A DNA stretch of 64,000 nucleotides from an uncultured Alphaproteobacteria bacterium (GCA_963752345.1 CAVVYA010000002.1:62046-126045); one strand, 5' to 3'; positions 1 through 33,212 are shown, numbered from the stretch's first letter. Notes: generated by a model not told the origin, from the letters alone. A program made the numbers and translations.

Positions 1-2
1 CC

Positions 3-647: not shown

Positions 648-1192
648 AGCATCATTCCATCAGAGCCTACACCTTGGCCGCCGTCGTGCTATTGGCGCTC
701 GGAGCTTGCGCGCAGTCGGCCAACTGGTCGGAGGTGCAGTCACCCAAGCGCAATCAGGTGGAACCCGTGCGCCTGGTGCACGACGTCAAGTTCACCAACG
801 GAACACGGCTCTCGCCTGTGGAGATGGCGCAACTCGACGGTTTCATCGCTCGCCATGACGTCGGCTACGGCGATCGGGTTTATGTGCTCACCGAATTGGT
901 TGGCGCCACGTCGCAGCGCAGCAACGTCGTGCTGAATTATATGAAGGCCCACGGCATCGCAGCCGCCGCGCTGCCATCGCCGGAAGCGCAGCCAGGCCTG
1001 GTGCGTATTGTGCTGAACCGCTATGTCGTCGTGCCGCCAAATTGCCCGGATTGGAGCAAGCCGATGACGCCGGATTACGCGAACACGCCGATGAGCAATC
1101 TCGGCTGCGCCACCACGGCGAACTTCGGCACGATGGTGGCGGATCCGTCGGAGTTGATTTCAGGGCCGCCAGCCTGGCCCCGCCGACGCTGA
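644..1192 (+). CDS. cpaD: Pilus assembly lipoprotein CpaD
   Basis: ATG 644 overlaps the upstream stop. The N-terminus has a lipobox (LLALGAC). Its position between the secretin and CpaE matches cpa/tad loci. Confidence 0.7.
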   Translation: MKHHSIRAYTLAAVVLLALGACAQSANWSEVQSPKRNQVEPVRLVHDVKFTNGTRLSPVEMAQLDGFIARHDVGYGDRVYVLTELVGATSQRSNVVLNYMKAHGIAAAALPSPEAQPGLVRIVLNRYVVVPPNCPDWSKPMTPDYANTPMSNLGCATTANFGTMVADPSELISGPPAWPRRR

Positions 1193-1267
1193 AGGGTCGA
1201 CCGGCGCCATCCAGCGCTACCGTACCGGTAAAATTACGCCACTCGAGAAACTTGTCACGGGTGGCAA

Positions 1268-4242: not shown

Positions 4243-5217
4243 CTCCGGTTGATATGATCACCGCGGCGATATTCTTAGGCGCCCTCGCAACCGTCGCGTC
4301 CGTGGGACTGGTCCTGGGTGGCGGCGCGGGCCGCAAGCAGAAAAAGCGCGTCGATACCGGTACGGCGCCGCTGGTCGGGCTTCTCGCCGGTGGATACAGC
4401 GGGAGCGAGCGTTCTGCGCGGCGAGGACACCAGCCGCCTCGGCAGCATGGCGCTGCGCCTCATGCCGCGCCGCCATATGCTTCGGCACCGGCTCATGAAG
4501 GCGGGACTCAATCTTTCGCCCGGTCAATACGCGCTCGTTAGCGTCGCTCTCGGCGCGACTTGCTGCATCGTTGCGAAGTTCGTCTTCGGCGTTCCCCTCA
4601 TGCTTGCCGGTTTGGGCGCCATCGTCATCGGCATCGGGCTGCCGCATATGGTGGTATCGAACATGATCGGACGCCGCCTGCGTAAGTTCACGAAATTGTT
4701 TCCCGAGGCGATCGATCTCATGGTCCGCGGCATCAAGTCGGGCTTGCCGATCAGCGAAACGATAGGCGCGATCGGGCAGGAGATGATCGATCCCGTCGGC
4801 ATCGAGTTCCGGCGCATCACCGATTCGGTCAAGCTCGGACAGACCCTGGAAGAAGCGCTTTGGGATGCGGCGCAACGTCTGGACACGGCGGAATTCAAGT
4901 TCTTCGTCATCAGCCTGTCGGTGCAGCGCGAAACGGGCGGCAATCTCGCCGAAACGCTCGACAATCTCGGCGATATTCTGCGCCGGCGTCAGCAGATGCA
5001 GCTCAAGATCAAGGCCATGTCATCCGAGGCGAGGGCGAGCGCCTATATCATCGGATCTCTGCCCTTTGTCATGTTCGGCATTCTCATGCTGATGAGTCCG
5101 GATTACGTCATGATTTTATTCACGGACTACCGCGGCATGATCATTACGGGTATCGGCTTGGCAACCATGCTCATGGGCGTGTTTGTCATGGCCAAAATGG
5201 TGAAGTTCGACATATGA
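4239..5217 (+). CDS. tadB: Tad pilus inner-membrane platform protein TadB (GspF-like); apparent +1 frameshift near 4385-4400 in this sequence
   Basis: ATG 4239 overlaps the cpaF stop (ATGA). The N-terminal TM helix is in that frame. The GspF-like remainder (RLMPRRHML...KLFPEAIDLMVRGIKSGLPISETI...) continues in the +1 frame (ORF 4318..5217). The span length is 3n+1. Confidence 0.6.
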
Positions 5218-6191
5218 GCGATCTCGCCAAATACCTGCCGGCAGGCATGAAACCGGAAGACGCTCTCGCTGTCTTGTTCGGGTTGGTGGCCTTTTTCGTC
5301 GTCATCGCCCTTTGGCAGGCGCTCCTGGTGCGCGACCCGATCGTCGTGCGCGCCAAGTCCCTGCTGGCGCGTCGGGCGGAACTCATGGCTCAGTACCTCG
5401 GACACACGCGCCCGCGACAGCGCCCCGCCGCGCGCGGTTTCATGGCCAACATCGTGCTGCGCCTCCGTCTGCTGCAAGGCGAAAAGGCCGGCAGCATGCG
5501 CGAGCGCCTTGCTCAGGCCGGCATTCGTTCGCGCGAGGCATTGATCGCCTATCTCTTTTTTAAGCTCTGCCTTCCCTTGGCGTTCGGCGTGGTGGCGTTA
5601 ATTCTGTTCGAGGGCATGAACGCTTACAATCTGACGTCCTCCAATAAAATTATCGTCTGTATCGGTAGCGTTCTATTTGGCGCGCTCGCGCCGGCGGTCT
5701 GGATCAAGAACAAGATCTCGAAACGTCAGGATGCCATTCGCAAGAGCGTGCCCGACGCGCTCGATTTGCTGGTGATCTGCGTCGAGGCGGGCCTGAGCCT
5801 TGACGCCGCCTTGACGCGTGTCTCTCGCGAGCTCGGGCGCGGCGCCCCTGAACTCGCCGACGAATTCCAATTGACCGCGCTGGAACTGGGGTTCCTCCCG
5901 GAGCGGCGTCAGGCTCTCGACAACCTGAGCAAGCGGGTGACCTTGCCGTCCATTCGCGCGGTGGTCGGTTCGCTGCTGCAGACGGAAAAATACGGCACGC
6001 CGCTGGCGCAATCCTTGCGGGTTCTGGCGGCCGAGTTCCGCAATGAGCGGATGATGCGGGCGGAAGAGAAGGCGGCGCGTCTGCCGGCGATCCTGACCGT
6101 GCCGATGGTGGTGTTTATCCTGCCGACCCTGTTCATCGTGCTGATCGGGCCCGCGATCATCAAGACGATCGACGCGCTTACAAAAATGTAA
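5214..6191 (+). CDS. tadC: Tad pilus inner-membrane platform protein TadC (GspF-like)
   Basis: ATG 5214 overlaps the tadB stop. MSDLAKYLP... has TM helices and the GspF-like motif PDALDLLVICVEAGLSLDAAL. The earlier in-frame start at 4860 would overlap tadB and is rejected. Confidence 0.75.
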   Translation: MSDLAKYLPAGMKPEDALAVLFGLVAFFVVIALWQALLVRDPIVVRAKSLLARRAELMAQYLGHTRPRQRPAARGFMANIVLRLRLLQGEKAGSMRERLAQAGIRSREALIAYLFFKLCLPLAFGVVALILFEGMNAYNLTSSNKIIVCIGSVLFGALAPAVWIKNKISKRQDAIRKSVPDALDLLVICVEAGLSLDAALTRVSRELGRGAPELADEFQLTALELGFLPERRQALDNLSKRVTLPSIRAVVGSLLQTEKYGTPLAQSLRVLAAEFRNERMMRAEEKAARLPAILTVPMVVFILPTLFIVLIGPAIIKTIDALTKM

Positions 6192-6335
6192 GCGGCCTGG
6201 CCGCCCGATCCGAGCGGCAGTCACCCGGCTTCTTCTTCAGAATTTTTGGATGCCGGCCGATCTTGCAGGATTTCCGAACGCCCGCTCGGCGACGGGCGCA
6301 TCCGAATGCCTGCCGGCGCGGCTGGCGGCCGACGG

Positions 6336-7280
6336 TCAATTGGATCCCGAGGCGACCGTGGCCGCCGGTGCGGCCTGGGCCGGCTGCTGGGGCGCGGGCT
6401 CGGAGCTCGGCGTCACGGTGATGCCGAACACCGCCGCGGCGCGCTGCTGCTGCGACATGGCCCGCAGGGTCTCATAATAGGCCAGATTGTTCTGCACCGT
6501 CGGTTCGTCGAAATCGAGCCGGGCGACGCCCGCGGCCTCGGCGAACTTGCCGGAAAGACCATAGACCAGAGCCAGATTCTGGCGATGCCGCGTGGTGCCG
6601 CGGCGTTCGTTCGCAAGCCGGCTGAGGATCTGGATGGCGTCGTCGTACTTGCCGCTGATCGCCAGCGACAGCGCCAGATTGTTGCGGAGATTGGCGTCAT
6701 TGGGCGCGATATCCAGACCGCGGCGATAACTGTCCTGCGCGCTTTGGTAATTCCCGTTCATATCCTGCACGACACCCATGCCGTTATACAGCCGGGGGTC
6801 GTTCTGCAGGGCCAGACCTGCGACAAACTGCTCGAGCGCCAGCTCGGGTTGATTCATAGCCAGGAGAGCATTGCCCAGCCCACGCAACCCATCGACGTTC
6901 TTGGCGTCGAGCTTGAGAGCCTCGCGATAGACCTCCGCCGCTTCGTTGTGAGCGCCCAAGGCGCTCAGCACCTGGCCGAGTTCGACGAGAATATCCGCAC
7001 GGAACGGCGACAGCTCATGCACGCGTTTGTAGACGGTGACGGCGGAGGCGAAATCGCCATTGTCGCGCGTGCTGCGCGCGACGCGCAGCAGGGTGGAGGC
7101 GGGGGAGCCGGGCGCTTCGCCGGTGGCCTCAGCGCTCGCTCTTGCGGCGGCGCTGGCGCTTGGCTCGAGATGGGAATCGGAGGCGCAGGCGGCCAGCCCG
7201 AAGGCCACCGTTGCGAGCAGCGCGGCGCGCAAGGCGCGGCGCGAGACGATAGAGCGGTTCAGCATGATCATCGGCAGCAT
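6336..7280 (-). CDS. TPR-repeat lipoprotein, TadD-like (Flp pilus assembly)
   Basis: ATG at 7280 with AGGAA upstream. Signal peptide and lipobox (LAACASDS). Multiple TPR-like repeats. It lies convergent to the tad operon. Confidence 0.6.
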   Translation of the reverse strand: MLPMIMLNRSIVSRRALRAALLATVAFGLAACASDSHLEPSASAAARASAEATGEAPGSPASTLLRVARSTRDNGDFASAVTVYKRVHELSPFRADILVELGQVLSALGAHNEAAEVYREALKLDAKNVDGLRGLGNALLAMNQPELALEQFVAGLALQNDPRLYNGMGVVQDMNGNYQSAQDSYRRGLDIAPNDANLRNNLALSLAISGKYDDAIQILSRLANERRGTTRHRQNLALVYGLSGKFAEAAGVARLDFDEPTVQNNLAYYETLRAMSQQQRAAAVFGITVTPSSEPAPQQPAQAAPAATVASGSN

Positions 7281-7428
7281 GGGACATTCCTGTGAAAGGA
7301 TTGTCCCAAGGATACGCCGATGCGTCTTACCGTAAGGTAAAGAAACCCTAAAATTTGCTGCGCATTCGGCGCGAAGACGAAGCGTCGGAAGGAGCCGGAG
7401 CCCCTTCCGCAGCGCGTTTTTTCCGCTA

Positions 7429-8292
7429 TCAGTCCTTGGCCGAGATCGGCTTGCCCGCGTACATCTTGCCGAGATAGGGCGCGGCCTTCTCATAGAGCAG
7501 CGCCGCGACGTCGTCGGCCTGGTAGTTCTTGATGAGCTGGTCGACCTGGCCGAAGAACGGCAGCGGCAGCTTGCGCTTCTGGGCGAGGTCGAGCGCGATA
7601 TCCATGTCCTTTTCCTGCCAGGTGAAGCGCGTGCCGTCCCAGCGCTCGAGCGTGCCGTTGGTGCCCGGGCACTGCAGCAGGGTCTCGCGCATCTTCTGGC
7701 CGTCGATGCCGTAGACCTTGGCGAGCAGGATCGCCTCGTAGTTGGCGATGCAATGGGCCCAGTGCAGCATGTTGTTGATGGTCTTGCCGATCTCGCCGGC
7801 GCCGAGCTCGCCCAGATGATGCACGGCGCGGCTGTAGGCTTCGAGCACGGGTCGGGCCTTCTCCACGTCCTTCTTCGCGCCGCCGACGGTCGAGGCGAGC
7901 GTGCCGTTCTTGGCGCCGTCGAGGCCGAAGCAGACCGGCGCGTCGATCACGCCGATGCCGGCCTTCTTGGCGATGGCGGCGCATTCGCGCACCATGTCGG
8001 GATGGCTGGTGGCGGTGATCACCAGTACCTGGCCTTTCTTGCCGCCGGCGGCGGCGATGTCGGTGACCACCTGCTTCACCTGATGGTCGAATCCGACCAT
8101 GATGATCACCACGTCGCAAGTGGTGGCGAGCTGCGCGAGCGATTTGGCGACCTTGGCGCCCTGCTTGGCGATGCCCTTGGTCGCCGCCTTGTTGATGTCG
8201 TAGACCCAGACTTCGTCGAATTTCTTGCTCTTGAGCACATGGCCCGCCATCGGTTCGCCCATGGCGCCGACGCCGACAAAACCCACTTTCAT
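7429..8292 (-). CDS. NAD(P)-dependent 3-hydroxyacid dehydrogenase family oxidoreductase (HIBADH / 6PGDH NAD-binding type)
   Basis: Start MKVGFVGVGAMG carries a Rossmann GxGxxG motif. RBS GGGAGAAG. 287 aa, typical for the family. Confidence 0.75.
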   Translation of the reverse strand: MKVGFVGVGAMGEPMAGHVLKSKKFDEVWVYDINKAATKGIAKQGAKVAKSLAQLATTCDVVIIMVGFDHQVKQVVTDIAAAGGKKGQVLVITATSHPDMVRECAAIAKKAGIGVIDAPVCFGLDGAKNGTLASTVGGAKKDVEKARPVLEAYSRAVHHLGELGAGEIGKTINNMLHWAHCIANYEAILLAKVYGIDGQKMRETLLQCPGTNGTLERWDGTRFTWQEKDMDIALDLAQKRKLPLPFFGQVDQLIKNYQADDVAALLYEKAAPYLGKMYAGKPISAKD

Positions 8293-8494
8293 CGCTGACT
8301 TCTCCCTTTTTTCGGTCGACCGCATAGACGCGGGAACCCGCTCGACGGCTGCGCTGCCGCTCGACGTTCGAGGGAATTTACTACACGACGCCTTCCGGCC
8401 CCGCTAGTCCCCTCTGTCTGCCCCGTTGGCGCCTTTGCATTCGGGCGCGGCGCTGGAGTATTCTCAGCCATCTCATTTCACTGGAGGTTTTAGG

Positions 8495-9196
8495 ATGGCG
8501 CGCGATTTCGAAGACCATTGTTGGAAAGACATCGTCGACGACGAGATCCTCGAGATCTATGAGGCCTATCACCGCAAGACCTACGTCGGGAAGAATCCGG
8601 CGGTGCTGGCGATCGATCTCTACAACAAGGCATATGAAGGCGGTAACAAGCCGGTGCGCGAGGTCAACCGGCAGTATTCCGGCTCGTGCGGTGAAAACGC
8701 CTGGAAGGCGATCGAGCCGACCCAGAAGCTGTTCGCCGCCGCCCGCAAGGCCGGTGTGCCGGTGATCTACAGCACGCGCCACGTCGACACCCGCGGCGTC
8801 CATTCGACCAACCGCAATATGGGCCGCGAAACGCCCAAGTCCGATATGTACGACATCAAGGCCGAACTGGCGCCGCAGCCGGGCGAGCTGGTGATCTACA
8901 AAGAGCGCGCGTCCGCCTTCTTCGGCACGCCGCTGGTCGCCCACCTGCGCCAGATGGGCGTCGACAGCCTGATCATCTGCGGCGAAAGCACGTCGGGTTG
9001 TGTGCGCGCCAGCACCGTGGACGGGTATTCCTACGGCTTCCACAATACGCTGGTCGAGGAGTGCACCTACGACCGCTCGATGCTGAGCCACAAGGTCAAC
9101 CTGTTCGACCTGCACCACAAATATGCCGACGTGATGCATGTGGACGAGGTCATCGCCCATCTCGAAGGCCTGGCGCAGCAGCGCAAAGTGGCGTGA
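8495..9196 (+). CDS. Isochorismatase-family cysteine hydrolase
   Basis: GGAGG RBS followed by ATG 8495. Family hallmarks VLAIDLYN and LIICGESTSGCVRAS (catalytic Cys) are present. Confidence 0.75.
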   Translation: MARDFEDHCWKDIVDDEILEIYEAYHRKTYVGKNPAVLAIDLYNKAYEGGNKPVREVNRQYSGSCGENAWKAIEPTQKLFAAARKAGVPVIYSTRHVDTRGVHSTNRNMGRETPKSDMYDIKAELAPQPGELVIYKERASAFFGTPLVAHLRQMGVDSLIICGESTSGCVRASTVDGYSYGFHNTLVEECTYDRSMLSHKVNLFDLHHKYADVMHVDEVIAHLEGLAQQRKVA

Positions 9197-9220
9197 GTCA
9201 ACGGCGAGAATTCGGATGAG

Positions 9221-9250
9221 AAAAAGGGCTGTCCTCGGGCGGCCCTTTTT
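9221..9250. terminator. Candidate bidirectional rho-independent terminator (A-tract, GC hairpin, T-tract)
   Basis: aaaaagggctgtcctcgggcggcccttttt lies between two convergent genes. Confidence 0.4.
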
Positions 9251-9456
9251 CATTTCTTTTTTCAGGACTGATAGGCATGAGCTCCGCGCTTGCCGGGACC
9301 GCCCGGATCGAAGCGGCTGCCGGCGAGACGCGCGACGCCGATGCGCGCTCCCCGTTTTAAAGCCGCGCGCCGCCAGTTGCTCGGCCAGCTTCTCGGCGCG
9401 GCCCTGGTGATCTCCAGCCTATCGGTATGCGACAGCGAGTCAGGATCTTTTGGCCG

Positions 9457-11109
9457 TCACTTTGTCCCGTAATCCCGGCTCACGGCTTCGGGCGTGGCGG
9501 CGCCCTCGGCCTGGTCGCGGGCCAGCGCCGCGCGGTCGCGCTCGCGCGGCTCGCCATAGCCGCCGCCGCCCGCGCTTTCGAGCAGGAAGCGCTCGCCGGC
9601 CTTCATCTCGAACCGGCCGGAGGCGGGGGTGAGCGTTTCGTCGGGCTGGCCCAGGCGGATGACGAAGCGGCTGGCGCGCCCCGGCTTGCCGCCGGCCAGG
9701 CCATTGGGCGGGAACCTGGCGCGGTCGTAGCGCCGGATCACGGTGGCATCTTCGAGCAACTCGTATTCGCGGCGGAAGCTCAGGCCGCCGCGCCACCGGC
9801 CGGCGCCGCCGAAATCGGCGATCATTTCGAAGCGGGTGACGCGGCACGGGTATTCCAATTCGAGGATCTCGATCGGCGTGACGTGCAGGTTGCTCAAGTG
9901 AGTCGCCGTTGCCGAGGCGCCGTCGTGGCCCTGGCCGCCGCCGTAGGCCGAGCCGAGGATTTCGTATTGCATGTTCGACTGGCCGGCGCGGCCCTTGCTC
10001 CAGGCGATGCTGAGAGCGCCCGACGAGCCGGCGTTGGCGGCGGCGCGCGCCGGGTGGAAATGGGCCAGCGCCTCGAGGATCACGTCGACCAGCTTGAGAT
10101 TGACCATTTGGTAGCTGGAAACCGGCGCGGGCGCCTCGGCATTGGTGATGGTGCGCGGCGCATAGGTGAAGCGCACCACGTCGCGCATGCCGTCGTTGGA
10201 CTGCAGATCGGGCCCGAGCGCGCCGATCAGCGAATAGAACACGCAGGCCTCGACCATGGAAGGCCGCAGATTGATCGGTCCCTTGGCCTGCGGGTCGCTC
10301 TGGGTGAAATCGAACGCGGCGATGCCGTCCTTGATGGTCACCGTACAGGCGAGCTTGACCGGCTTGTCGAGCACGATGCCGTCGGTATCGACGAAGCCTT
10401 CGGCGGACGCGCTGCCTTCCGGCAGTTTGGCGATGGCGGTGCGCAGTTCGTCCGCCGCACCTTGAAGAATGGCGGCGAATGAGTCGGTGACGGTCTTGGC
10501 GCCGAAGCGCTGGCACAGTTCGCCAACGCGCGTCGCCCCGATGCGGGTCACGGCGATCTGGGCGCGCACGTCGCCGCGCACCAATTCGGGCTGCCGGCTG
10601 TTGGCGAGGATCAGCCGTTCGATGTCGGGCAGTTCGCGGCCGGCGTCCCAGATCTTGATCGGCGGCACGAGCAGCCCTTCATGGAAAATTTCCGTGGCGC
10701 TCGCCGATGTCGAGCCCGGCATCGTGCCGCCGATATCGGCTTTGTGGGCGATCGAGCCCGAGAAGGCGACGAGCTCGCCATTGGCGAATACCGGCGCCAC
10801 GAAGGCCATGTCGGAAACGTGGGGCAGCCCGCCCTCGTAAGGGTGGTTACAGACGAACACGTCGCCGTCTTTCAGATTGCCGTCGCCGTACAGCTCGAGA
10901 ATTCTTCCGACCAGGTGGCGATAGACCGGCGCGTGGAAGAACATCGGCGGGGCGACGATCAGCCGGCCGTCGCGGTCGAGGATGACGCAACTGAAATCGC
11001 GCAATTCGCGGATGATGGTGGAATAGCCCGAGCGATAGAAATGATAGTGCATCTCGTCGACCAGGCTGGCGATCTTGTTGCGCAGGATCTGGATGGTGAC
11101 GGCGTCCAT
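9457..11109 (-). CDS. hyuB: Hydantoinase B / oxoprolinase family protein (HyuB-like)
   Basis: Start MDAVTIQILRN at ATG 11107-11109 with RBS GAGGGGTGA. Hydantoinase_B-family sequence throughout. The 1043-aa six-frame ORF is rejected because its N-terminus is Arg/Gly junk. Confidence 0.85.
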   Translation of the reverse strand: MDAVTIQILRNKIASLVDEMHYHFYRSGYSTIIRELRDFSCVILDRDGRLIVAPPMFFHAPVYRHLVGRILELYGDGNLKDGDVFVCNHPYEGGLPHVSDMAFVAPVFANGELVAFSGSIAHKADIGGTMPGSTSASATEIFHEGLLVPPIKIWDAGRELPDIERLILANSRQPELVRGDVRAQIAVTRIGATRVGELCQRFGAKTVTDSFAAILQGAADELRTAIAKLPEGSASAEGFVDTDGIVLDKPVKLACTVTIKDGIAAFDFTQSDPQAKGPINLRPSMVEACVFYSLIGALGPDLQSNDGMRDVVRFTYAPRTITNAEAPAPVSSYQMVNLKLVDVILEALAHFHPARAAANAGSSGALSIAWSKGRAGQSNMQYEILGSAYGGGQGHDGASATATHLSNLHVTPIEILELEYPCRVTRFEMIADFGGAGRWRGGLSFRREYELLEDATVIRRYDRARFPPNGLAGGKPGRASRFVIRLGQPDETLTPASGRFEMKAGERFLLESAGGGGYGEPRERDRAALARDQAEGAATPEAVSRDYGTK

Positions 11110-11111
11110 GC

Positions 11112-13205
11112 TCACCCCTCCCGTTCCAGGATCAGGTTGCGGTAGGCATCCACCCGCGCGCTCCAATGGGCCGGAATGACCGTCGTCGCATCGAACTGCT
11201 CGACGATGGCCGGACCATAAATCTCGGTCCCGATGTGCAGCTTGTCGCGCTCGTAGAGCTTGGCCGGCGTGGCGGTCTGGCCCTCGAAATAGACGTTGCG
11301 CGTGCCCTTCGCCGCATCCTGGGCATTGCGGATGGTGCCGGGCGGTTCGGCGATGGGCTGGTATTTCGGCACGGCGACGCGCACGCGCAACCGGTAGCTC
11401 ACCAGTTCCACCGGTTTCTCCTGCGCGGCATGGCCATGGATCTGGGCGTGGCGCTCGTCGAAGCGGGCGCGTGCATCGACCAGCGACCGGGCCTCCAGCC
11501 GACCCTCGTAGAGCCCGTCGAGCGGCGTGCGCAGCTCGTAGCCCTGGCCGGTGTAGCGCAGGTCGAGCTCGCGCAGGAACTGCGCGTGTCCGTCGCTCAT
11601 GCCTTCGGAGGCGAGAGCCTCGCGCGCCTTGGCCTCCAGTTCGCGGAAGATCGCCTCCGCGTGCTCCGGCGTCAGCGCGGCGAGCGGCTGCAGTTCCGAG
11701 CGGATGTAGTCGTGCACCACGTCGGTGCAGAGCAGGCCGAGCGCGGAGAAGGCACCGGGGCGCGCCGGCACCAGGATGCGGCGCATGCCGAGCTCCTCTG
11801 CCACCGCCGCCGCATGGACCGCGCCGGCGCCGCCGAATGGCAGCAGGGTGAAGGCCGACAGATCGACGCCGCGCTTGGCGGCGAACACGCGCACCTCGTC
11901 GGCCATGCGCATGTCGACGATGCGGCGGATGCCGGCTGCGGCCTGCAGCACGCTCAGGTTCAGCGGCTTGGCGATATGGCGTTCGAGCGCGGCATGGGAC
12001 GCCTGGGCATCCAGCGTCTGCGTGCCGCCGAGAAAATACGCGGGATTGAGGAAGCCGCAAACCACGTCGGCGTCGGTCACGGCCGGCTGGCTGCCGCCGC
12101 GGCCGTAGCAGGCGGGGCCGGGGTCGGCGCCGGCGCTCTGCGGCCCGACAGTGAGGAAGCCGCCGTTGTCGATCGCGGCGATCGAACCGCCGCCGGCCGA
12201 GATGGTGGTCATGTCGAGCGCCGGCACATCGAGCTGGCGCCGCGCGATGGTGCCTTCGGTCACCTCCAGCGGCACGCCGCCTTCGATGAAGGCGATGTCG
12301 CAGCTCGTGCCGCCCATGTCGAGGGTGACCAGCCCGCTCATCGCCTCGTCCTTGGCGAGATAGGCGCTCGCCTGGGCGCCGGCCGCCGGTCCGGAGAACA
12401 GGGTATGCACGGTCTTGCCGCCGGCGATTGCGGCGGCGAAGGGCATGACGCCGCCGTTCGACTGCATGAGGAAGCGCTGGTGGGTATGGATGTCGGCCGC
12501 GTCGAGCCCCTTGCTCAGATGGTCGATGTAGCGCACCAGCACCGGCTCGAGATAGGCGTTGAGCAGGGTGGTCGACAGACGCGGCCATTCGCGGATGCGC
12601 GGCAGCACCTCGCTCGAGATCGAGACGGAGACGCCGGGGAATTCCGCCAGGATGATGCGGCGCGTCTCCTCCTCATGGGCCGGGTTCATGAAGGAGAACA
12701 GGTAGCAGACGGCGATGGATTGCACGCCCGCATCCTTCAGCGCGCGCGCCGCCTGCCGCACCGCGTCGCGGTCGAGCGGCAATAACACTTTGCCCGAGAA
12801 ATCCGAACGCTCTGGAATTTCCTTGGTCAGGCTCTGCGGCGCGATGGGCCTCGGCTTCTCGTAGAAATAGTCGAACGGGTTGCCGTCGCGTGCCTGGTTC
12901 TGGGTCTCCTGCACCGCGCGGTAGCCCTTGGTGATGAGCAGGCCGACCTTGGCGCCGCGCATTTCCAGGAGTGCGTTGGTGGTGATGGTGGTGCCGTGGG
13001 CGAAGAAACCGATCTCGTCGGGGTTTACGCCGCGGGCGATGAACTTCGCGACACCGTCGAGCACGCCGAGCGCCGGATTCTTCGGCGTGCTCGCCACCTT
13101 CTCGACCATGAGCGTGCCGCTCTCCGCGTCGAGCAGCACCAGGTCGGTGTGGGTGCCGCCCACGTCGACGCCGAGCCGGTAACGCGGACCACCGAGGATC
13201 GCCAT
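11112..13205 (-). CDS. hyuA: Hydantoinase A / oxoprolinase family protein (HyuA-like)
   Basis: MAILGGPRYRLGVDVGGTHTD has the actin-like ATPase N-motif. 697 aa. The stop lies 2 bp before the hyuB ATG. Confidence 0.85.
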   Translation of the reverse strand: MAILGGPRYRLGVDVGGTHTDLVLLDAESGTLMVEKVASTPKNPALGVLDGVAKFIARGVNPDEIGFFAHGTTITTNALLEMRGAKVGLLITKGYRAVQETQNQARDGNPFDYFYEKPRPIAPQSLTKEIPERSDFSGKVLLPLDRDAVRQAARALKDAGVQSIAVCYLFSFMNPAHEEETRRIILAEFPGVSVSISSEVLPRIREWPRLSTTLLNAYLEPVLVRYIDHLSKGLDAADIHTHQRFLMQSNGGVMPFAAAIAGGKTVHTLFSGPAAGAQASAYLAKDEAMSGLVTLDMGGTSCDIAFIEGGVPLEVTEGTIARRQLDVPALDMTTISAGGGSIAAIDNGGFLTVGPQSAGADPGPACYGRGGSQPAVTDADVVCGFLNPAYFLGGTQTLDAQASHAALERHIAKPLNLSVLQAAAGIRRIVDMRMADEVRVFAAKRGVDLSAFTLLPFGGAGAVHAAAVAEELGMRRILVPARPGAFSALGLLCTDVVHDYIRSELQPLAALTPEHAEAIFRELEAKAREALASEGMSDGHAQFLRELDLRYTGQGYELRTPLDGLYEGRLEARSLVDARARFDERHAQIHGHAAQEKPVELVSYRLRVRVAVPKYQPIAEPPGTIRNAQDAAKGTRNVYFEGQTATPAKLYERDKLHIGTEIYGPAIVEQFDATTVIPAHWSARVDAYRNLILEREG

Positions 13206-13206
13206 C

Positions 13207-15412
13207 CTATTGCTTGTCTCCTCCCCGCAGAATCACCAGCGCATCGAGCGCGATGCCGCCCTTGCCCTTGGGCAGGGCGACGAACGGGTTGACGTCGATC
13301 GATTCGATGACGTCGCCGAGGTCGAGCGCAATGCGCGACAGCGCCACCAGCGCCTTGACCACGGCCTTGCGGTCATAGGGGCCGGCGCCGCGGTAACCGT
13401 CGAGCAGCTTGGCCGCCTTGGTGCGGCCGATCAGCGCGTCGGCCGCCGCCGCGTCGGTCACCGGCCTGGAGAAGGCGACGTCCTTGTAGAGCTCGAGATT
13501 GACGCCGCCGCTGCCGACCATGACCACCGGGCCGACCTCCGGATCGCGCGTCATGCCGAGCACCAGCTCGATGCCGCCGGTCACCTGCTGGGCGATCAGC
13601 ATGCCCTCGACCGTGGCGCTGCGTTTGTAGCGTCGCACGTTCTTGAGGATCGTGTCGTAGCCCTTGCGCACGGCGGCCGGTGAATCGAGGCCGAGCAGCA
13701 CGGCGCCAGCGTCGGACTTATGGGTGATCTCTTCCGAAATCGCTTTCAATACCACCGGAAAGCCGATGGCCTTGGCCTCGCGCGCCGCGGCGGCCGGGCT
13801 TTCCGCCACCGCTTCCTTCGGCGGCTTGATGCCATAGGCCTTGAGCAGCGCCTTCGACTCGACCTCGGTCAGCGCGCGGGCCGCGCCCGACTGACCGGCG
13901 ATCTTGCGGATGCGCTGGGCGATGGCGGGCGGCTTGCCAGCCGTCGTGCGTGGCGCTTTCGTGGCAGCCGCCTTGCGCGCCGCATAGTCGGTCACATTGC
14001 GAATGGTGCGCAGGGTCTTGTCCGGTTCCTGCAGGAAGGGCAGGTGGGGCAGTTCGGCGTGTAGTTGGCGGCTGTGATCGGACAGGCCGTAGGAGATCAT
14101 GCTGACATAGGAAATCGGCTTGCCGCCCTCGGCGTTCTCCCGCGCCGCGATCTTCTCCACCTCGCGCAGGTTGCTGGTCTTGCGCTCGGCGCCTTCGGGC
14201 GCGCGCGGCAGCTCTTCCTGCAGCAGCACGATATCGATGCCCGGGTCGGCCAGCATGGCCTCGACGCAATCGAGGTAGGCCTGCTGGCTCGACAGCGCCG
14301 CGAAGCCGGAATCGAGCGGGTTGCCGACGATGCTGCCGACGCCGAGGATCCTGGACAGCTTGTCGCGCGTCTGCGGCGCGAGCTCGGCGAACTTGAGGCC
14401 GTTGTTGGACGCCGCGTCGAGCAACAGGCCGCGCAATCCGCCCGAGAAGGTCACCGCGCCGAGCCCGGCGCCCTTGGGCAGCCGCGCATAGACGAAATAC
14501 TCGACCAGTTCGACCACCTCGTCCATGTTGCGCGCGCGCACCACGCCGGCGGCGCCCGCCACCGCGTCGAATGCCTCCATGGCGCCGGCCAAGGCACCCG
14601 TATGGGCCATGGCGGCCGCGCGGCCCTCCGCCGAAGCGCCGAGCTTCATCACCACGACCGGTTTGCCGGCCTCGCGCGCGTCGCGGCACGCGGAAAGGAA
14701 CGCGTCCGCGTCATGGATCGATTCGAGATAGGAGACGATGACCTTGGTCTGCGGGTCGGCGGCGAAATAGCGGATGTAATCGGCATTGGTCAGGCCGGTC
14801 TCGTTGCCGCTGGTGATGATATAGCCGACATCGCAGCCGCGCTCTTCCAGCGTGCGCTTGATCGCCATCAGCAGGCCGCCAGACTGGCCGATGATCGCCA
14901 CGCCGCCCGCGGTCACGCGCTGCGGCCGGTCGTCCGGCATGGTGACCAAGTGGGCGGCGGCCGAGATATTGCCGAGGCAGTTGGGGCCCGACACGGCGAT
15001 GCCGGTTTCCTCGATCACCCGGCGCAGCTCGGCGGCGACCGCCTTGCCTGCGCCGCCCTCGGCCTCCTCGAAGCCCGAGCTGATGATGGTGGCGCTGCGC
15101 GCGCCGGCCTGGGCGGCCTCGCGCAGGCTCGCCGGCACGGCGGCCGCGGGCACCAGCACGACGATGTGGTCGGGCTTCTCCGGCAGGTCGCCATAAGCGC
15201 GATAGCATTTCACGTCCCACACCGTGTCGCGGCCCGGGATTCATCGGGAAGATCTTTCCCGGAAAGCTGTAGCGCTGCAGGTTGCGGAACACCCGCGTGG
15301 TCCACGAGCCCGGCTTGTCGGTGGCGCCGAGGATCACGACGTTGCGCGGGTTGAGCAGCGCCGCGACCTTGTCGTTGTTGTTCTTGGTTGCCGGCTTGTT
15401 GGTTCCCCACAT
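13207..15412 (-). CDS. ADP-forming acyl-CoA synthetase (acetate--CoA ligase [ADP-forming] family); frameshifted by a 1-bp insertion in CCCGGG at 15233-15238 in this sequence
   Basis: The CoA-binding N-terminus (MWGTNKPATKNN...NVVILGATDKPGSWTTRVFRNLQRYSFPGKIFPMNPG) is in one frame (ORF 14711..15571). The rest (DTVWDVKCYRAYGDLP..., succinyl-CoA-ligase-like and ATP-grasp domains) is in ORF 13207..15222. The span length is 3n+1. Confidence 0.7.
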
Positions 15413-15444
15413 GGGTGCGCTTCCTCCAGAATGTTCTGCTCTTG

Positions 15445-17177
15445 TCATTGACTGTAGGCGTCCGACGCGCTGCGCCGCGACAGGACGTAGAAGATAAAGG
15501 CGATGACGGTCATCAGGGCGGTCCACGACAGGCCGAGCGCCGCGAGCTCGGTGCCCTGGCCGTTGCTCCACATGTCGAACATGGCGACCGCCATGGTCTG
15601 CGAATTGGGTCCGGCGAGCAGGATCGGCAGCGACAGCACGCGCGCGGCGAGCAGGAAGATGAACAGCCAGCCGGCGAAGATGGCGGGCGCCAGCAGCGGC
15701 GCGATGACGCGGCGCAGCGTCGTCAGGGGCGTGGCGCCGGCGACGCTGGCGGCTTCCTCGAGCTCGTTATGGATCTGCAGCACGCCGGTGTAGCTGTAGC
15801 GCATGCCGTAGGGCAGGTAGCGCACGACGAAGGCGATGATCAGAATCCACACCGTGCCGTAAATCTTGAACGGCAGCGCCAGGGCGACCTGCATGATGGC
15901 GACGCCGAGCACGATGCCCGGGAAGATCAGCGGCGCGCTGGCGAGCTGGTCGAGCACGGCGCCGCCGGGCCGCCGCCGCGCGGCGATCCAGCCGGCAAGC
16001 AGGGTGAGCGCCATGGTGATGGTGGCGGCCGCCGCGGCGACGAACACCGTGTTCCACGCCAGGCCGAAATAGAGGCCGGAGGCGAACACGGCGCGATAGT
16101 TCTCGAACGAGAGCAGCGACAGGGCCTTGACCGAGAAGGTCTGATAGAACGGCAGCAGCGAGGCCCAGACCAGCACCAGGGTCGGCAGGCCGAGCACCAG
16201 CAGGAAATTCACCAGGATGATGGCGCCCGCGAGGAGGCGGCCCTTGCCGAGGTCGAAGGCGCGCGGGCGGAAGCCCTTGCCGGTCACCGTATGGTAGCGC
16301 TCGGCGTGTTTCGAGATGCGGCCGTAGAAATAGAGCAGCACGCCGACGACGACGAGCAGCACGCTGGCGAAGGCGCTGGCATAGCCGAGGTCGGGCGGCA
16401 CGCGGCCGCGGATCTCGAGGAAGATGTCGGTGGTCAGCACATGCACGCGGCCCGGAATGCCGACCAGGGCGGGCACCTCGAACGCCTCGATGGCGCGGAT
16501 GAACACCAGCATGGCGAGCGCCAGCAGGGCCGGCATCGCCATCTTGAAGGTGACGCGGCGGAAGGTCTGCCAGACGCCGGCGCCCGACATGCGCGCGGCT
16601 TCCTCGAGCTCCGGGTTGGCCGCGCGGAAGGTCGCCGAAAGCAGCAGGAAGACGAGGGGCGACCACAGGAAGCCCTCGATCATGATCATGCCGCCCAGGG
16701 AATAGACGTTGAACAGCAGGTCCGTGCTGCCGGTCAGATTGCGGTAGGTGGCATTGAGCGGCCCGGCCCGGCCGAGCAGGAACAGCCAGGCGCTGACATA
16801 GAGCACGTAGGGCGTGCCGAGCGAGATGATGGTGGTGAGATAGGCGAGCGGCTTGAACGGTGCGTTGGTGCGCTCGACCAGCCAGGCGAGCAGCCCGCCG
16901 AACAGCAGCGCCACGACCGCGCTGCCGATGGCGAACAGGACAGGAGTTGATGGCGCTGCTGATCAGCCGCGCGTCTTCCGCCAAGCGCGCGTAGTAGCGT
17001 CCGGTGAAGGGGCCGAGCGAGCCGTCGAGCCTGTTGACGAAGAAGCTGCCCTGGACCAGGAACCACAGCGGCGGGATCACCAGCAATCCGATGGCCAGGA
17101 TGAGCAGCAGCGTGCCGGAGCGCCGGCAGCGGCAGGCGGGCGAGCAGGCCCGGCCGCCGGGTCTGCTCGGCCGCCAT
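15445..17177 (-). CDS. ABC transporter permease, fused double permease domain (FbpB/ThiP-type); two apparent frameshifts (~16921-16936 and ~17110-17125)
   Basis: The body of the protein (about 489 aa) reads continuously in ORF 15445..16914 and shows many TM helices. The segment RLISSAINS is in the neighbouring frame (ORF 15767..17086). The probable ATG at 17175-17177 (MAAEQTRRPGLLARL) is in a third frame. The span length is 3n+2. Confidence 0.55.
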
Positions 17178-17203
17178 GCCGGCGGCGGAGGGAAGCGCTT
17201 GGG

Positions 17204-18278
17204 TCACGCGGGGTTACGCAACGCCGGGCAGGGGATCAGCGGAACAGCTTGGTCGGAGATCTTCTTCCATTCCGGCAGTTTCTCGCCGAGCGTTTCCGGC
17301 GTGAAGACATTGACCTTGAACTTGCCGCCTTCGGGCGTCAGCTCCGGCTCGCGCGGCTTCACATTGGGATGCACCGGCAGATAGTCGGCGGCCTCGAACA
17401 GCTTCTGGCCTTCCTCGGAGACCATGTAGTCGATCAGCAGCTTGCCGGCGTTCGGATGCTGAGCGTCCTTGGTGAGGGAGACGACGCTGAGCGTCGCCGT
17501 CACCGGCTCCATGGCGATCCAGGTCACAGGCGCGCCTTTCTTGGCGCTGATCACCGCGTGATGGTTGAAGATCTGCAGGGCGATGGGGAATTCGCCGGCG
17601 ATCGCCTGGTCGAGCAACTGGCGCGCGCTGACGTCCATGTTGACGATCTTCTGGCCGGCGAGCTTCTTCAGGTAGTCCATGCCCTTCTGCTCGCCCATGG
17701 TGGTCAGCACATTGCCGACGAAGCCCGGGCGCGCCCGAGCTCGACATCGACGAATTCCACGCCAGCTTGCCGCGCCATTTCGGGTCGAGCAGATCCTCGA
17801 AGCTCTTCGGCGCGTCCTTGAGCGGCACCAGGTCCGTGTTGATGCCGGGCGTCATGTAATAGGCGTGGGTCGCGACCCACTGCTGGTCCTTGTCGACGAA
17901 CTGCGGCCCCAGCGCCTTGGCGCCGTCGGGCACGTATTTGGCGACCAGGCCGGCTTCCTTGAGCGGCGGCGTCGCGCTGGTGCCGTCGAACAGGTCGGCC
18001 TGCACCTTGCCGGCGCGCGCCTCGTTGATGATCTTGAGCGCCGTATCGGAGGCATTGGCGCGCACATACTGCACCTTGATGCCGTATTTCTTCTCGAAGT
18101 TGTCGGCGAGCGGGCGGACGAGCTGATTGACGATGACCGTGGTGTACCAGACGACCTCGCCCTCCTTCTTGGCGGCGTCGATCAGCGCCTGGTCGGCCGC
18201 GCCGGCGGGCAGGCTGAAGGCGAGGAGGGTGCCGAAGGCGAGGGCGGATGCGGCAAGCCGCGGGCGTGTGCAAGGCAT
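17204..18278 (-). CDS. ABC transporter periplasmic substrate-binding protein, Fe3+-type (AfuA/FbpA-like); frameshift by a 1-bp insertion at CCCGGG 17724-17729
   Basis: Signal peptide MPCTRPRLAASALAFGTLLAFSLPAGAADQ. EVVWYTT...FEKKYGIKVQYVRANASD is typical of the family. After the frameshift the C-terminal part continues as GFVGNVLTTMGEQKGMDYL... in ORF 17204..17710. Confidence 0.7.
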
Positions 18279-18483: not shown

Positions 18484-18687
18484 ATGCCCATCCCGACGCA
18501 GACCGTGCAGGTCCAGTTGCGCGACTATCAGCTCTCGTTCCTCGAGGAGATGATGGCGAAATACAAGATCCCGGACCAGGGCAAGGCGCTCCGCGTGCTG
18601 CTCGACTACGCGGTGCAGGACGCCGACCTCGACCTGGTGTTCGACAAGAAAAACATGCGCTGCATCGCCTGCGGCGGCGCGGTCTAG
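18484..18687 (+). CDS. Small hypothetical protein, possible ribbon-helix-helix (CopG/antitoxin-like) fold
   Basis: AGGAG RBS, high GC3. The pattern is a beta-strand (TVQVQLRDY) followed by two helices (LSFLEEMMAKYKI, DQGKALRVLLDYA). Confidence 0.5.
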   Translation: MPIPTQTVQVQLRDYQLSFLEEMMAKYKIPDQGKALRVLLDYAVQDADLDLVFDKKNMRCIACGGAV

Positions 18688-19026: not shown

Positions 19027-20107
19027 GTGCTCAGCGGTTCGTCGCAGCATCGCTGCGCTCTTGCTCGCTCTTCATCCGCACAGCGCTTTCGCCGCCGATT
19101 TGCAGCCGCCGTTCGACATGGCCGCGCGGCGCGAGTTGCGCGGCGGTCCGCTCGGCGTCTTCAGTTGCGGCGCGCCGCCCAAGCCGGTGCGCGACCTGCG
19201 GTTCGACGGTTATTACGCGGACCGCGGTTCCGGCTCCAGCGTGGTCGATCAGCAGGCGGAGAAGGCCTATCGCGAGGCGACCCAGGCCATCGCCCAATAC
19301 GAGGCCGCGCTGACGAAAATGTCCGACCGCTACGTGGCGAGCAAGCCGGCGGACGCGCAGCCCGCCGCCTGCGTGCTCGACTGGCTCGCCGAATGGGCGG
19401 CCGCCGGCGCGATGCTGGGCGAGGCGAGCCAGCAGGGCGGCTTCGTGCGCAAATGGGGCTTGGCGCCGGTCTCGGCTTCCTATCTCAAGATCCGCGACGA
19501 ACCCGGCCTCGATGGGGCGAAGAAGCGGGCCGTCGAGCAATGGATCGGGCGCTGGGCGCGCGTCGTGCGCGACGACTACAACCCGACGAAATTGGAAAGC
19601 CGGCGCAACAATCACGTCTATTGGGCGGCCTGGTCGGTCGGGCTCGCCGCCGTCGTGCTCGATGACAGATCGCTGTTCGACTGGTCGATGGAAAAGGCGC
19701 GTATCGGGTTGAAACAGGTCACGCCCGAAGGCACGCTGCCGCTCGAAATGGCGCGCAAGGCGCGTGCCTACCATTACCATGCGTTTTCCGCCGCTCCCTT
19801 GGTGCTGACCGCCGAACTCGCGGCGCGCAACGGCGTCGATCTCTATGCCGACAATGGCGGCGCGCTGCGGCGGCTGGTGACGCGGACGATCGCCGGTTTC
19901 ACCGACGATTCGTATTTCGCCCAGGCGGCCAACGTGAAGCAGGACCGCAGCGGGTCGAGCAAGGGTCCGCACGTCGCGTGGCTCGAAGCGTATTATGCGC
20001 GCACCGGCGATGGCGCGGCCGCGCCGATCATCCGCCAGTTCCGTCCCATGAGCGAGCGTCGGCTCGGCGGCGACATGACGCTGCTCTACGGCGCCGACCT
20101 CCCGTAA
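19027..20107 (+). CDS. Alginate-lyase-family protein (PL5/AlgL-like, NNHxYW motif), secreted; probable 1-bp insertion near 19033-19038 disrupts the signal-peptide region
   Basis: NNHVYWAAWSV hallmark motif. The uninterrupted frame carries a signal peptide (RRSIAALLLALHPHSAFA-AD) but has no in-frame ATG or GTG. A GTG at 19027 with a GGAGG upstream joins that frame after a 1-bp correction. Confidence 0.6.
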
Positions 20108-20195
20108 GACCATGATTGCGCGCGTCCGCCGATCCGGCCGGAACCGTTGATACCGCACATCGTTGATAGGCAGAGGCTGAACGCAGGAGGATTCC

Positions 20196-20348
20196 ATGCG
20201 CCTGTTTTTGCTCGCCCTTGCCACCGCCGCGTCGCTCGCGCTCACCGCGTGCGGCAGCGATGACAAGACCGTGGTGGTGCCGCCCGGCGGAACCGCGGTG
20301 ATCGAAGACGGCAACGCCAAGGTTTGCCCCGCCGGCCAGACCTGCTGA
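20196..20348 (+). CDS. Small lipoprotein (50 aa)
   Basis: AGGAGG RBS 5 nt before the ATG. MRLFLLALATAASLALTACGSDD has a lipobox. High GC3. Two C-terminal Cys residues. Below the ORF-track size cutoff. Confidence 0.55.
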   Translation: MRLFLLALATAASLALTACGSDDKTVVVPPGGTAVIEDGNAKVCPAGQTC

Positions 20349-20374
20349 CGCAACCCATTTATTCAGGAGACGAT

Positions 20375-20836
20375 ATGCCCCTGCCGCCCCGCACGCGCGC
20401 CTACGATGTTCCCGCCGTCCTCGATGTGCTGAACGAGATCCTCAAGATGGAACTCGCGACCGTGGTCTATTACACCCACTATTCCTTCATGGTGTATGGC
20501 CATGCGCGCATTCCGGTGATCGATTGGATGCGTGGGCAGGCGACCGAATCGCTGACCCACGCGCAAGGCGCCGGCGACATGATCCTGCGGCTCGAGGGGC
20601 GGCCCGACATGGGCATCGCGCCGCTGCCGTCGACCCATCACAACACGATCGACGAGATCCTGCAGGAAGCGGTGGTGCGCGAGAACGAGGGCGTCGAGCT
20701 CTATCGCAAGCTGCACGCGCTGATCAAGGACAAGTCGATCGTGCTGGAGGAATACGCCAGCCGCATGGTCGCCGCCGAATCGATGCATGTCAGCGAGATG
20801 CGCATGATGCTGCGCCGCTCGGCGCCGCAGAACTGA
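20375..20836 (+). CDS. Ferritin-like diiron protein (bacterioferritin family, without the heme-ligating Met)
   Basis: AGGAG RBS. Glu/His ligand pattern (ELATVVYY, ESLTHA, ENEGVELY, AESMHVSEM) aligns with Bfr ferroxidase-centre residues. Confidence 0.65.
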   Translation: MPLPPRTRAYDVPAVLDVLNEILKMELATVVYYTHYSFMVYGHARIPVIDWMRGQATESLTHAQGAGDMILRLEGRPDMGIAPLPSTHHNTIDEILQEAVVRENEGVELYRKLHALIKDKSIVLEEYASRMVAAESMHVSEMRMMLRRSAPQN

Positions 20837-20923
20837 CGGCCTTCCGTCATCGCCCGGCTCGTGCGTCAGCACGCATGCGCATGACGCCGGGCCGTCTTTC
20901 ACAGAGCAACGCACCGATCACCA

Positions 20924-21011
20924 TCGTCATGCCCCGGCTTGTCCGGGGCATCCACGACTTTGTCGGAGGCGAAAAGAACGTGGATGGCCCGACCAGGTCG
21001 GGCCATGACGA
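20924..21011. repeat. Second copy of the compound REP-like palindromic element (tcgtcatg-hairpin-catccacg ... cgtggatg-hairpin-catgacga)
   Basis: Outer 8-mers are complementary to each other. Inner hairpins are gccccggcttgtccggggc and ggcccgaccaggtcgggcc. Same family as 18859-18952. Confidence 0.7.
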
Positions 21012-21049
21012 TTAGAAACACACCGCCCGAGGGTATTCGGGTGCGTCGC

Positions 21050-22510: not shown

Positions 22511-22529
22511 CAGGCTTTGACCTTGTTCA

Positions 22530-33136: not shown

Positions 33137-33212
<76 letters not shown>

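Follow-up and report, generated by a model that had tools for sequence, protein, structure and literature searches.

What does an operon do that joins genes for an ATP binding cassette (ABC) importer, an acyl-coenzyme A (CoA) synthetase and a two-subunit hydantoinase-like enzyme, and is it functional at all, given that three of its five genes are split between reading frames? The question is raised by positions 7429 to 18278 of a stretch of 64,000 nucleotides from an uncultured Alphaproteobacteria bacterium (GCA_963752345.1, CAVVYA010000002.1:62046-126045), which we refer to as the window. The minus strand carries, in this order, genes for a binding protein, a fused permease, an ADP-forming acyl-CoA synthetase (ACS), HyuA and HyuB; adjacent to them are genes for an isochorismatase-family cysteine hydrolase and for a reductase of the HIBADH (3-hydroxyisobutyrate dehydrogenase) family. 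The operon is real and evolutionarily conserved, is most likely intact in the source organism, and is best described as an uncharacterised HyuAB-based cluster, probably for the catabolism of cyclic amides, with a dedicated importer.

Taken as a whole, we consider the following account on balance probable: the genes form a catabolic operon that combines ABC uptake, ATP-dependent opening of a cyclic amide by HyuAB, a CoA thioester made by the ACS and a HIBADH-family reductase, with a borrowed ATPase and with frameshifts that are artefacts. A binding-protein-dependent ABC importer would take in a small polar organic solute, and HyuAB would open a stable cyclic amide (of the hydantoin, lactam or cyclic imide type) at the cost of ATP. 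The ACS would turn a carboxylate, present either in the substrate or in the product of ring opening, into a CoA thioester, and the HIBADH-family reductase would act on a 3-hydroxyacid or semialdehyde intermediate. In the lineage of the window, the additional cysteine hydrolase may strip the opened product of a carbamoyl or amide group, and the ATPase for the importer would be supplied from elsewhere. The data show the gene families, the catalytic residues, the conserved gene order, the recurrent links of HyuAB to an ACS and to the reductase, and purifying selection; which reactions take place, in which order and on what substrate is what we infer. A preliminary description of the same DNA had proposed a pathway of this kind for a cyclic amide, an idea that is plausible but unproven. 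A Pfam scan recovered every family named in that description at its place between positions 7429 and 18278, so that its gene content and order stand, although it had overlooked five frameshifts in three of the genes.

Both hydantoinase-type subunits are intact. HyuA (697 amino acids (aa), positions 11112 to 13205, minus strand) is the ATP-binding subunit of the ASKHA type and consists of the families Hydant_A_N, Hydantoinase_A and Hydant_A_C (PF05378, PF01968, PF19278). HyuB (550 aa, positions 9457 to 11109, minus strand) is the metal-binding catalytic subunit and covers the family Hydantoinase_B (PF02538) from position 1 to 519 of 519. The nucleotide motifs of HyuA (DVGGTHTD, DMGGT and GADPGP) fit the ASKHA definitions DxGGTxTD, DxGGT and GxxPGP, and HyuB aligns over its full length with 7hk5 and with CapB; the residues of HyuB that correspond to the metal tetrad of CapB (Asp41, His99, Asp102 and His124) are all conserved; both sets of definitions are taken from PMC8453981. 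The best matches of HyuA in the PDB are N-methylhydantoinase (7hk5, 3.6e-131) and caprolactamase (6yra, 2.4e-115), and the bit scores of HyuA and HyuB, respectively, are 442 and 215 against N-methylhydantoinase, 390 and 174 against caprolactamase, and 250 and 36 against acetone carboxylase. N-methylhydantoin amidohydrolase (7hk5), the best solved relative of both subunits, shares the two-module layout, the ATP motifs and the metal tetrad, but is a single chain of 1288 aa where the window has separate subunits, and its identity is about 30–40% as estimated from the alignments. CapAB of Pseudomonas jessenii (6yra; PMC8453981), like a related lactamase of P. putida, is a two-subunit ATP-dependent lactam hydrolase and the best NCBIfam match for HyuAB, with motifs and metal ligands conserved; its gene context, however, differs, and the scores against the caprolactamase models NF050156 and NF050157 (530.6 bits for CapA and 217.2 bits for CapB) stay below the equivalog cut-off of 1000. 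HyuAB therefore appears to be an uncharacterised clade in the hydrolase branch of the family (hydantoinases and lactamases) and not among the carboxylases, and it groups with neither 5-oxoprolinase nor the carboxylases, the subfamily question that the preliminary description had raised. The reaction is probably an ATP-dependent opening of a ring of the hydantoin, lactam or cyclic-imide type. Few enzymes are known to open chemically stable lactams and hydantoins with 5- to 7-membered rings, and those of the HyuAB type are among them; the substrates of no more than a handful have been established, and interest in them comes from biocatalysis with nylon monomers, lactams and amino acids (PMC8453981, PMC11033972).

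The same scores bear on a carboxylase function, in which HyuAB would carboxylate a ketone to a beta-keto acid that the reductase converts into a 3-hydroxyacid or the ACS converts into a thioester. HyuAB belongs to the same protein superfamily as the acetone and acetophenone carboxylases, and a 3-hydroxyacid dehydrogenase together with a CoA ligase would suit beta-keto-acid chemistry. However, HyuB reaches just 36 bits against AcxA, the alpha subunit of acetone carboxylase, compared to 215 bits against N-methylhydantoinase, and the models of the acetophenone carboxylase Apc give 125–325 bits at cut-offs of 1250–1500. There is no further open reading frame (ORF) between or beside hyuA and hyuB that could encode a gamma or epsilon subunit, and a binding-protein importer is not expected for a diffusible ketone. 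We consider a carboxylase very improbable.

Is this arrangement of genes found elsewhere? A scan for HyuA with one genome per species resulted in 80 loci (numbered with the prefix L), in which HyuA is 66–93% identical and which, by the titles of their records and with a few odd labels, are all metagenome-assembled genomes (MAGs) of Alphaproteobacteria. Among these 80 loci the full upstream module is present at high identity in L029 only, a GTDB representative MAG with 91% nucleotide identity to the window. The same gene order is found in six other assemblies in total, namely L029, L081 (a Logan assembly), L082 (GCA_035493495.1), L086, L087 (GCA_050260515.1) and L090, of which the last three and L082 were found through the contexts of ACS homologues. 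The proteins of L029 and L081 are about 90% identical to those of the window; in L082, L086, L087 and L090 the identity is 59–62% for the binding protein, 67–69% for the permease, 62–64% for the ACS and 75–77% for HyuA and HyuB. The window, L082 and L087 have both flanks in common, with an alginate lyase gene and a small ORF of 67 aa (positions 18484 to 18687 of the window, plus strand) upstream, and a tetratricopeptide repeat (TPR) protein gene and Tad pilus genes downstream. The TPR and Tad side is also present in L086; in L090 the 67-aa ORF is present, the genes further upstream differ and the contig ends in hyuB. The synteny of the orthologues, which the preliminary description had named as a check, is therefore found in six assemblies, and the operon is probably vertically inherited within a group of Alphaproteobacteria that the records mostly label as Hyphomicrobiales-type. 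Searches of the literature found no paper on this type of operon.

The orthologous operons also account for the missing ATPase. In L082 (7993–9108), L086 (6182–7297), L087 (10031–11149) and L090 (12165–13283) a gene for an ATPase with the families ABC_tran and TOBE_2 lies between the ACS gene and hyuA. It is cleanly absent in the window, L029 and L081, in all of which the stop codon of the ACS gene is 1 nucleotide from the start of hyuA, and the ABC ATPase signature (LSGGQ) does not occur anywhere in the 64 kb of the window. The gene order suggests that the ancestral operon had its own ABC ATPase between ACS and hyuA and that the lineage of the window lost it. The statement of the preliminary description that the operon lacks an ABC ATPase gene thus extends to the whole window, and the absence is a lineage-specific loss, since four orthologous operons carry one. 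Among the three ATPase-less relatives (window, L029 and L081) the ratio of nonsynonymous to synonymous substitution rates (dN/dS) of the permease is 0.12–0.15 at synonymous rates of up to 0.43. Given this low ratio, selection still acts on the importer, which presumably works with an ATPase from another locus. We note that an ABC ATPase that seems to be missing can be a lineage-specific loss and not a feature of the system.

Other loci show which genes travel together. L061 and L068 consist of the 67-aa ORF, HyuA, HyuB, the hydrolase and the reductase, without ABC or ACS genes; L061 has Tad genes downstream, and the contig of L068 stops before them. Because these two loci and the orthologous operons differ in their ABC, ACS and hydrolase genes, the stable core is the 67-aa ORF together with HyuA and HyuB, usually with the reductase, and the transporter, ACS and hydrolase modules are variable. 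In L032, L076 and L078 two HyuA-HyuB pairs are found within 10 kb, which suggests a paralogous expansion in the same catabolic island. Plasmid-borne HyuA homologues are paralogues with at most 46% identity, and those of Agrobacterium plasmids are about 40% identical.

A second problem is the state of the genes. In the sequence of the window the genes for the binding protein, the permease and the ACS (3 of the 5 operon genes) are each split between reading frames. In blastn comparisons with L029 and L081, the window has five additional bases, each of them isolated: two in the binding protein gene (at about 17731 and 17252), two in the permease gene (at about 17119 and 16939) and one in the ACS gene (at about 15235). 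The ORFs are intact in both relatives. All five changes are +1 insertions, without stops or deletions, and removing the five bases restores full ORFs of 346, 576 and 734 aa, respectively. The dN/dS of the repaired genes against L029 is 0.08–0.14, compared to 0.11 for the intact HyuA. A scan of codon-position G+C content over the whole window, used to flag further breaks of frame, pointed to two more places. In rplD (positions 54516 to 55457, plus strand) the frame changes near 54.9 kb, such that positions 1–122 and 131–190 of Ribosomal_L4 are in different frames and the shifted ORF continues in frame into rplW (L23), giving a fusion ORF of 313 aa (L4-L23). Since an essential gene cannot be broken in this way, the break in rplD is an indel error of the assembly. 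The second place is an alpha/beta-hydrolase gene (about 24278 to 25317, plus strand), which shows three frame switches within about 140 nucleotides relative to an intact homologue of 95% identity (P0218). Homologues of this gene are named pimeloyl-ACP methyl ester carboxylesterase in the sources. The broken products are on record from one public NCBI/ENA contig of 1,223,142 bp (as pieces of 671 aa for the ACS, 489 aa for the permease and 313 aa for L4-L23), and exact sequence look-ups did not find the repaired proteins on record. The genes rpoB, rpoC, fusA and tuf are unbroken in the window.

These observations also bear on a decaying operon, in which the uptake and CoA-ligase genes would be true pseudogenes, the ATPase gene would have been deleted, and only HyuAB, the hydrolase and the reductase would function. 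Consistent with decay, the ATPase of L082, L086, L087 and L090 is missing in the window, all five frameshifts fall within the three genes that precede hyuA, and L061 and L068 have HyuAB, hydrolase and reductase without the ABC and ACS genes. Decay is contradicted by the frameshift in the essential rplD and the three in another gene of the same contig, by the exclusive occurrence of +1 insertions without stops or deletions, by dN/dS values of the repaired genes that are as low as that of HyuA, and by the ATPase-less L029 and L081, which keep intact genes under purifying selection; we therefore regard it as unlikely. What appear as five frameshifts are errors in the consensus of the deposited assembly and not signs of gene decay, and because of this the operon is probably intact in the organism. 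Programmed frameshifting was also considered and rejected, because the five sites are spread over three genes and share no motif, and the close relatives are unshifted. An inspection of the insertion sites by eye for the signature of a methylation motif gave no consistent pattern. More generally, caution is called for with genes of long MAG contigs that look like pseudogenes, as their breaks can stem from consensus errors.

Which solute would the importer bring in? The periplasmic solute-binding protein (346 aa after repair, positions 17236 to 18278, minus strand) belongs to the FbpA/AfuA/PhnS group, with the families SBP_bac_1, 6, 8 and 11 matched on both pieces, and the permease (576 aa after repair, positions 15445 to 17177, minus strand, with an alternative GTG start at 17206) is a fused two-domain protein with two BPD_transp_1 stretches. 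The best PDB relatives of the binding protein are P5PA, AfuA and HitA, and FbpA is also matched; P5PA binds pyridoxal phosphate, and AfuA is a binder of sugar phosphates. The preliminary description had called this uptake system Fe3+-type, which holds as a family label only. The Tyr-Tyr pair of ferric binding proteins provides ligands of Fe3+, and the NNYYW stretch of HitA and of a Vibrio ferric binding protein (7w3w) aligns with IFNHHAV in the window, so that the Tyr-Tyr pair is replaced by His-His. Compared to importers of the AfuABC, P5PA and FbpABC type, the binding-protein family and the fused double permease are the same, as is the TOBE-domain ATPase in the orthologous operons; the differences are the lack of an ATPase gene in the window, where the set of binding protein and fused permease is incomplete without its cognate ATPase, the exchange of the Tyr-Tyr of HitA for His-His, and the ACS gene that the orthologous operons hold between the permease and ATPase genes. 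A transporter that imports Fe3+ and merely adjoins unrelated metabolic genes would fit the family names and the PDB matches to HitA and FbpA. It is contradicted by four orthologous operons in which the ACS gene separates the permease gene from the ATPase gene, by the alignment of Tyr-Tyr with His-His and by top matches that bind organic phosphates, and is extremely unlikely.

The ACS (734 aa after repair, positions 13207 to 15412, minus strand) is an ADP(NDP)-forming enzyme of the fused alpha-beta type with the families CoA_binding_2, Succ_CoA_lig and ATP-grasp_5. Its residues 18–725 align with Nmar_0206 (8wzu), with AMAHTGA opposite H256 and THKSDAGAV opposite H535. Because the alignment is full-length and both phosphohistidines are kept, the ACS should be a working ligase. 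Its best NCBIfam score is 391.5 bits against NF045493 (4-hydroxybutyrate-CoA ligase, ADP-forming), where the cut-off is 1300. The full-length alignment and the two phosphohistidines are shared with the 4-hydroxybutyrate- and 3-hydroxypropionate-CoA ligases of Nitrosopumilus maritimus (8wzu, 9y43; PMC11494057), which, however, belong to an archaeal carbon-fixation cycle (PMC11494057), whereas the ACS of the window is encoded amid the genes of a bacterial ABC transporter. This location of an ADP-forming CoA ligase gene within a transporter block is an unusual trait of the operon's architecture.

Is the combination of ACS and HyuAB more than a coincidence of one operon? The homology-supported ORFs of the 80 loci were clustered, and the cluster representatives were annotated by Pfam. 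An NDP-forming ACS is encoded within 10 kb of HyuA in 16 of the 80 species-representative loci, and in a neighbour-joining tree of HyuA all 16 fall into the sub-clade that holds the window. Three arrangements are found: the ACS gene directly upstream of hyuA inside the ABC operon; a series of TctA, ACS, acyl-CoA dehydrogenase, VOC protein, HyuA, HyuB and an Amdase-like protein; and HyuA, HyuB and a cupin-like protein (without Pfam match) with the ACS gene on the opposite strand. Because ACS recurs in three independent arrangements within one sub-clade of HyuA, the data support a functional link of this sub-clade to CoA-thioester chemistry, and the coupling of HyuAB to a CoA ligase proposed in the preliminary description is supported as well. 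ACS homologues of 58–61% identity also occur without HyuAB, adjoining Asp_Glu_race genes (L083–L085, L089 and L091). L083–L085 additionally contain MmgE/PrpD, a Mo-hydroxylase and an FAD-binding protein, and L091 (ACS identity of 61%) combines MmgE/PrpD and an enoyl-CoA hydratase with an ABC importer of the type found in the window. The pairing of transporter and ACS therefore recurs independently of HyuAB as well, and the ACS family looks like a reusable module for CoA activation.

The position of the ACS gene also allows a more specific proposal, namely that the ACS is an integral partner of the importer that traps the incoming acid as a CoA thioester, with HyuAB acting on a CoA-bound cyclic amide and the ATPase being borrowed in the lineage of the window. 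The proposal is suggested by the ancestral operon, in which the ACS gene is flanked by those of the permease and the ATPase; we put it forward tentatively and think it quite improbable. If true, it would combine transport-coupled thioesterification with the ATP-dependent ring opening of a natural heterocycle.

Two partial precedents exist for the account that we favour, a catabolic operon for a cyclic amide with CoA activation. The iaa (indoleacetate) cluster of Aromatoleum aromaticum (IaaCE) may be likened to the operon by gene content, and its ligase IaaB is AMP-forming, unlike the ADP-forming ACS of the window. This cluster encodes a binding protein, a CoA ligase that acts first and a hydantoinase-like hydrolase (PMC8360864; PMC8453981, Table 1), such that binding for uptake, CoA ligation and HyuAB-like hydrolysis are likewise united in one catabolic cluster; the window has no equivalents of its mutase, CoA transferase and benzylmalonyl-CoA dehydrogenase. 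The iaa pathway is drawn with CoA ligation before ring opening, i.e. in the reverse order (PMC8360864). By analogy, the cluster may serve as a precedent that links the HyuAB family to CoA-thioester chemistry. In the opine-lactam regions of Ti plasmids, ABC import genes adjoin genes for hydantoinase/oxoprolinase A and B, which are putative lactam openers (PMC6733357). These regions differ from the operon in their location on plasmids, in lacking an ADP-forming ACS and in the family of their transporter, and their lactam function is inferred, too.

The hydrolase gene features in two rival readings of the substrate. It encodes 233 aa (positions 8495 to 9196, plus strand; Isochorismatase, PF00857) and matches the N-carbamoylsarcosine amidohydrolase CSHase (26st, 2e-31), NicF (3ot4 and 3uao, 1e-29) and 1nba (4e-22) in the PDB. 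The alignments to 26st, 3ot4 and 1nba all keep its Cys (TSGCVRAS) and its Lys (YKERASAF); only the one to 1nba extends to the Asp of LAIDLYN, which we take to be a member of the catalytic triad. The hydrolase resembles N-carbamoylsarcosine amidases and the maleamate amidohydrolase NicF to about the same degree. It follows hyuB in L081, L061, L068 and L073 and is absent in L082, L086 and L087 (the contig of L090 ends in hyuB), and the family is present in 5 of the 80 HyuA loci. The preliminary description had named the gene as adjacent, which is correct; the hydrolase is an accessory gene and not a conserved member of the operon.

One substrate type follows from the first of these matches. HyuAB would convert a hydantoin- or creatinine-type compound into an N-carbamoyl amino acid, and the isochorismatase-family hydrolase would decarbamoylate it. 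N-methylhydantoinase and N-carbamoylsarcosine amidase are consecutive enzymes of the creatinine pathway, and they are the best solved relatives of HyuAB and of the hydrolase (the latter with about 45% identity over about 155 residues, by estimate). The near-equal score of the hydrolase with NicF (1e-29 vs 2e-31), its absence from the orthologous operons L082, L086 and L087 and its presence in just 5 of 80 HyuA loci speak against this assignment, as does the finding that neither a creatinine deaminase nor a sarcosine oxidase was seen among the genes annotated near the operon. The ACS and the reductase would be left without a role, and the creatinine pathway indeed has no counterpart to the ACS, the reductase and the ABC importer of the window. 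We regard a hydantoin- or creatinine-type pathway as possible but rather unlikely.

The second match would lead to a pathway of the cyclic-imide or pyridine-ring type. HyuAB would open an imide such as maleimide, succinimide or glutarimide, the NicF-like hydrolase would turn the half-amide into a dicarboxylate, and the ACS, which resembles succinyl-CoA synthetase, would activate it. The N-methylhydantoinase of P. putida 77 hydrolyses cyclic imides as well, the hydrolase is close to NicF, a source labels members of its cluster as maleamate amidohydrolase, and in related loci genes for Amdase or Asp_Glu_race (maleate-isomerase superfamily), MmgE/PrpD and Mo-hydroxylase stand beside HyuAB or ACS homologues. 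The case is, however, built purely on gene context, the hydrolase is not conserved in the operon, and the cluster of the window contains no genes for ring cleavage or hydroxylation, which makes this substrate type quite unlikely.

The reductase is the more constant companion of HyuAB. The gene (positions 7429 to 8292, or 8325, minus strand) encodes an NAD(P)-dependent 3-hydroxyacid/semialdehyde oxidoreductase of 287 aa with the families NAD_binding_2 and NAD_binding_11. Of the 60 loci with a called gene after hyuB, 26 have a member of the HIBADH family immediately behind it, and the reductase of the window is 75–76% identical to the gene directly after hyuB in L082 and L087. Its NCBIfam equivalog scores are 98–134 bits at cut-offs of 292–397, and its PDB relatives include 2-(hydroxymethyl)glutarate dehydrogenase and 3-hydroxyisobutyrate dehydrogenases. 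The reductase is a generic member of the HIBADH family and a recurrent partner of the HyuAB clade. The operon defines a widespread, conserved alphaproteobacterial sub-clade of HyuAB, and the recurrent link to an ADP-forming CoA ligase and a HIBADH-type reductase is a testable handle on a new substrate and pathway.

Several points weigh against a conserved, functional cyclic-amide pathway. The five insertions are packed into 2.5 kb, and the 8 kb of rpoB and rpoC are free of breaks, a clustering for which a locally poor consensus is the sole account that we can offer, and an importer without ATPase together with five frameshifts could be read as a dying operon. None of the operon proteins reaches an NCBIfam equivalog cut-off, and HyuAB is just about 30–45% identical to any characterised or plasmid-borne relative. 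With the exception of L029, the HyuA-linked ACS genes of the 80-locus set are 33–35% identical to the ACS of the window, and these enzymes may act on other acids. The contexts of the HyuAB orthologues are diverse, including TctABC, acyl-CoA dehydrogenase, VOC, Amdase, Mo-hydroxylase, Rieske, TauD and UbiD, and one shared substrate is therefore not assured.

The layout of the transcript is compact. The TAG stop of the ACS gene is followed by 1 nucleotide and the ATG of hyuA, 2 nucleotides lie between the stop of hyuA and the ATG of hyuB, and 32 nucleotides separate the stop of the permease gene from the ATG of the ACS gene, in agreement with the tight spacing described before. The hydrolase gene, which had been described as divergent, is divergent from the reductase gene only; with respect to hyuB it is convergent, and the gap between the two contains a hairpin (positions 9220 to 9251, without strand assignment) with a stem of 14 bp and flanking A and T runs. 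The hairpin is likely a terminator that ends the operon transcript, as judged from its structure and position. Rfam gave no riboswitch in the region upstream of the operon, its matches in the window being four tRNAs elsewhere, and a scan for sigma-70 promoters gave no more matches than in shuffled sequence.

The 67-aa ORF is divergent from the operon. L029, L082, L087 and L090 have it ahead of the operon, too, and in L061 it immediately precedes hyuA, with identities of 67–97%; 36 homologues have a mean column identity of 80% and an invariant C-terminal MRCIxCGG. There is no Pfam match, and the AlphaFold model is of low confidence (predicted local distance difference test score, pLDDT, of 61.5). 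An alignment of the intergenic regions between this ORF and the operon across loci showed no clear operator. The ORF is a possible regulator of the operon. By eye, its pattern resembles a ribbon-helix-helix protein.

The surroundings of the operon are as follows. The downstream flank (positions 1 to 7500 of the window) contains a Tad/Flp pilus locus with a CpaF-type ATPase, TadB/TadC-like genes and a TPR protein gene, and the upstream flank (positions 19100 to 23771) contains genes for an alginate lyase, a ferritin-like protein, an M20 peptidase and PurT. Positions 33140 to 64000 hold four tRNAs, two copies of tuf, rpoB, rpoC, fusA and a cluster of ribosomal-protein genes.

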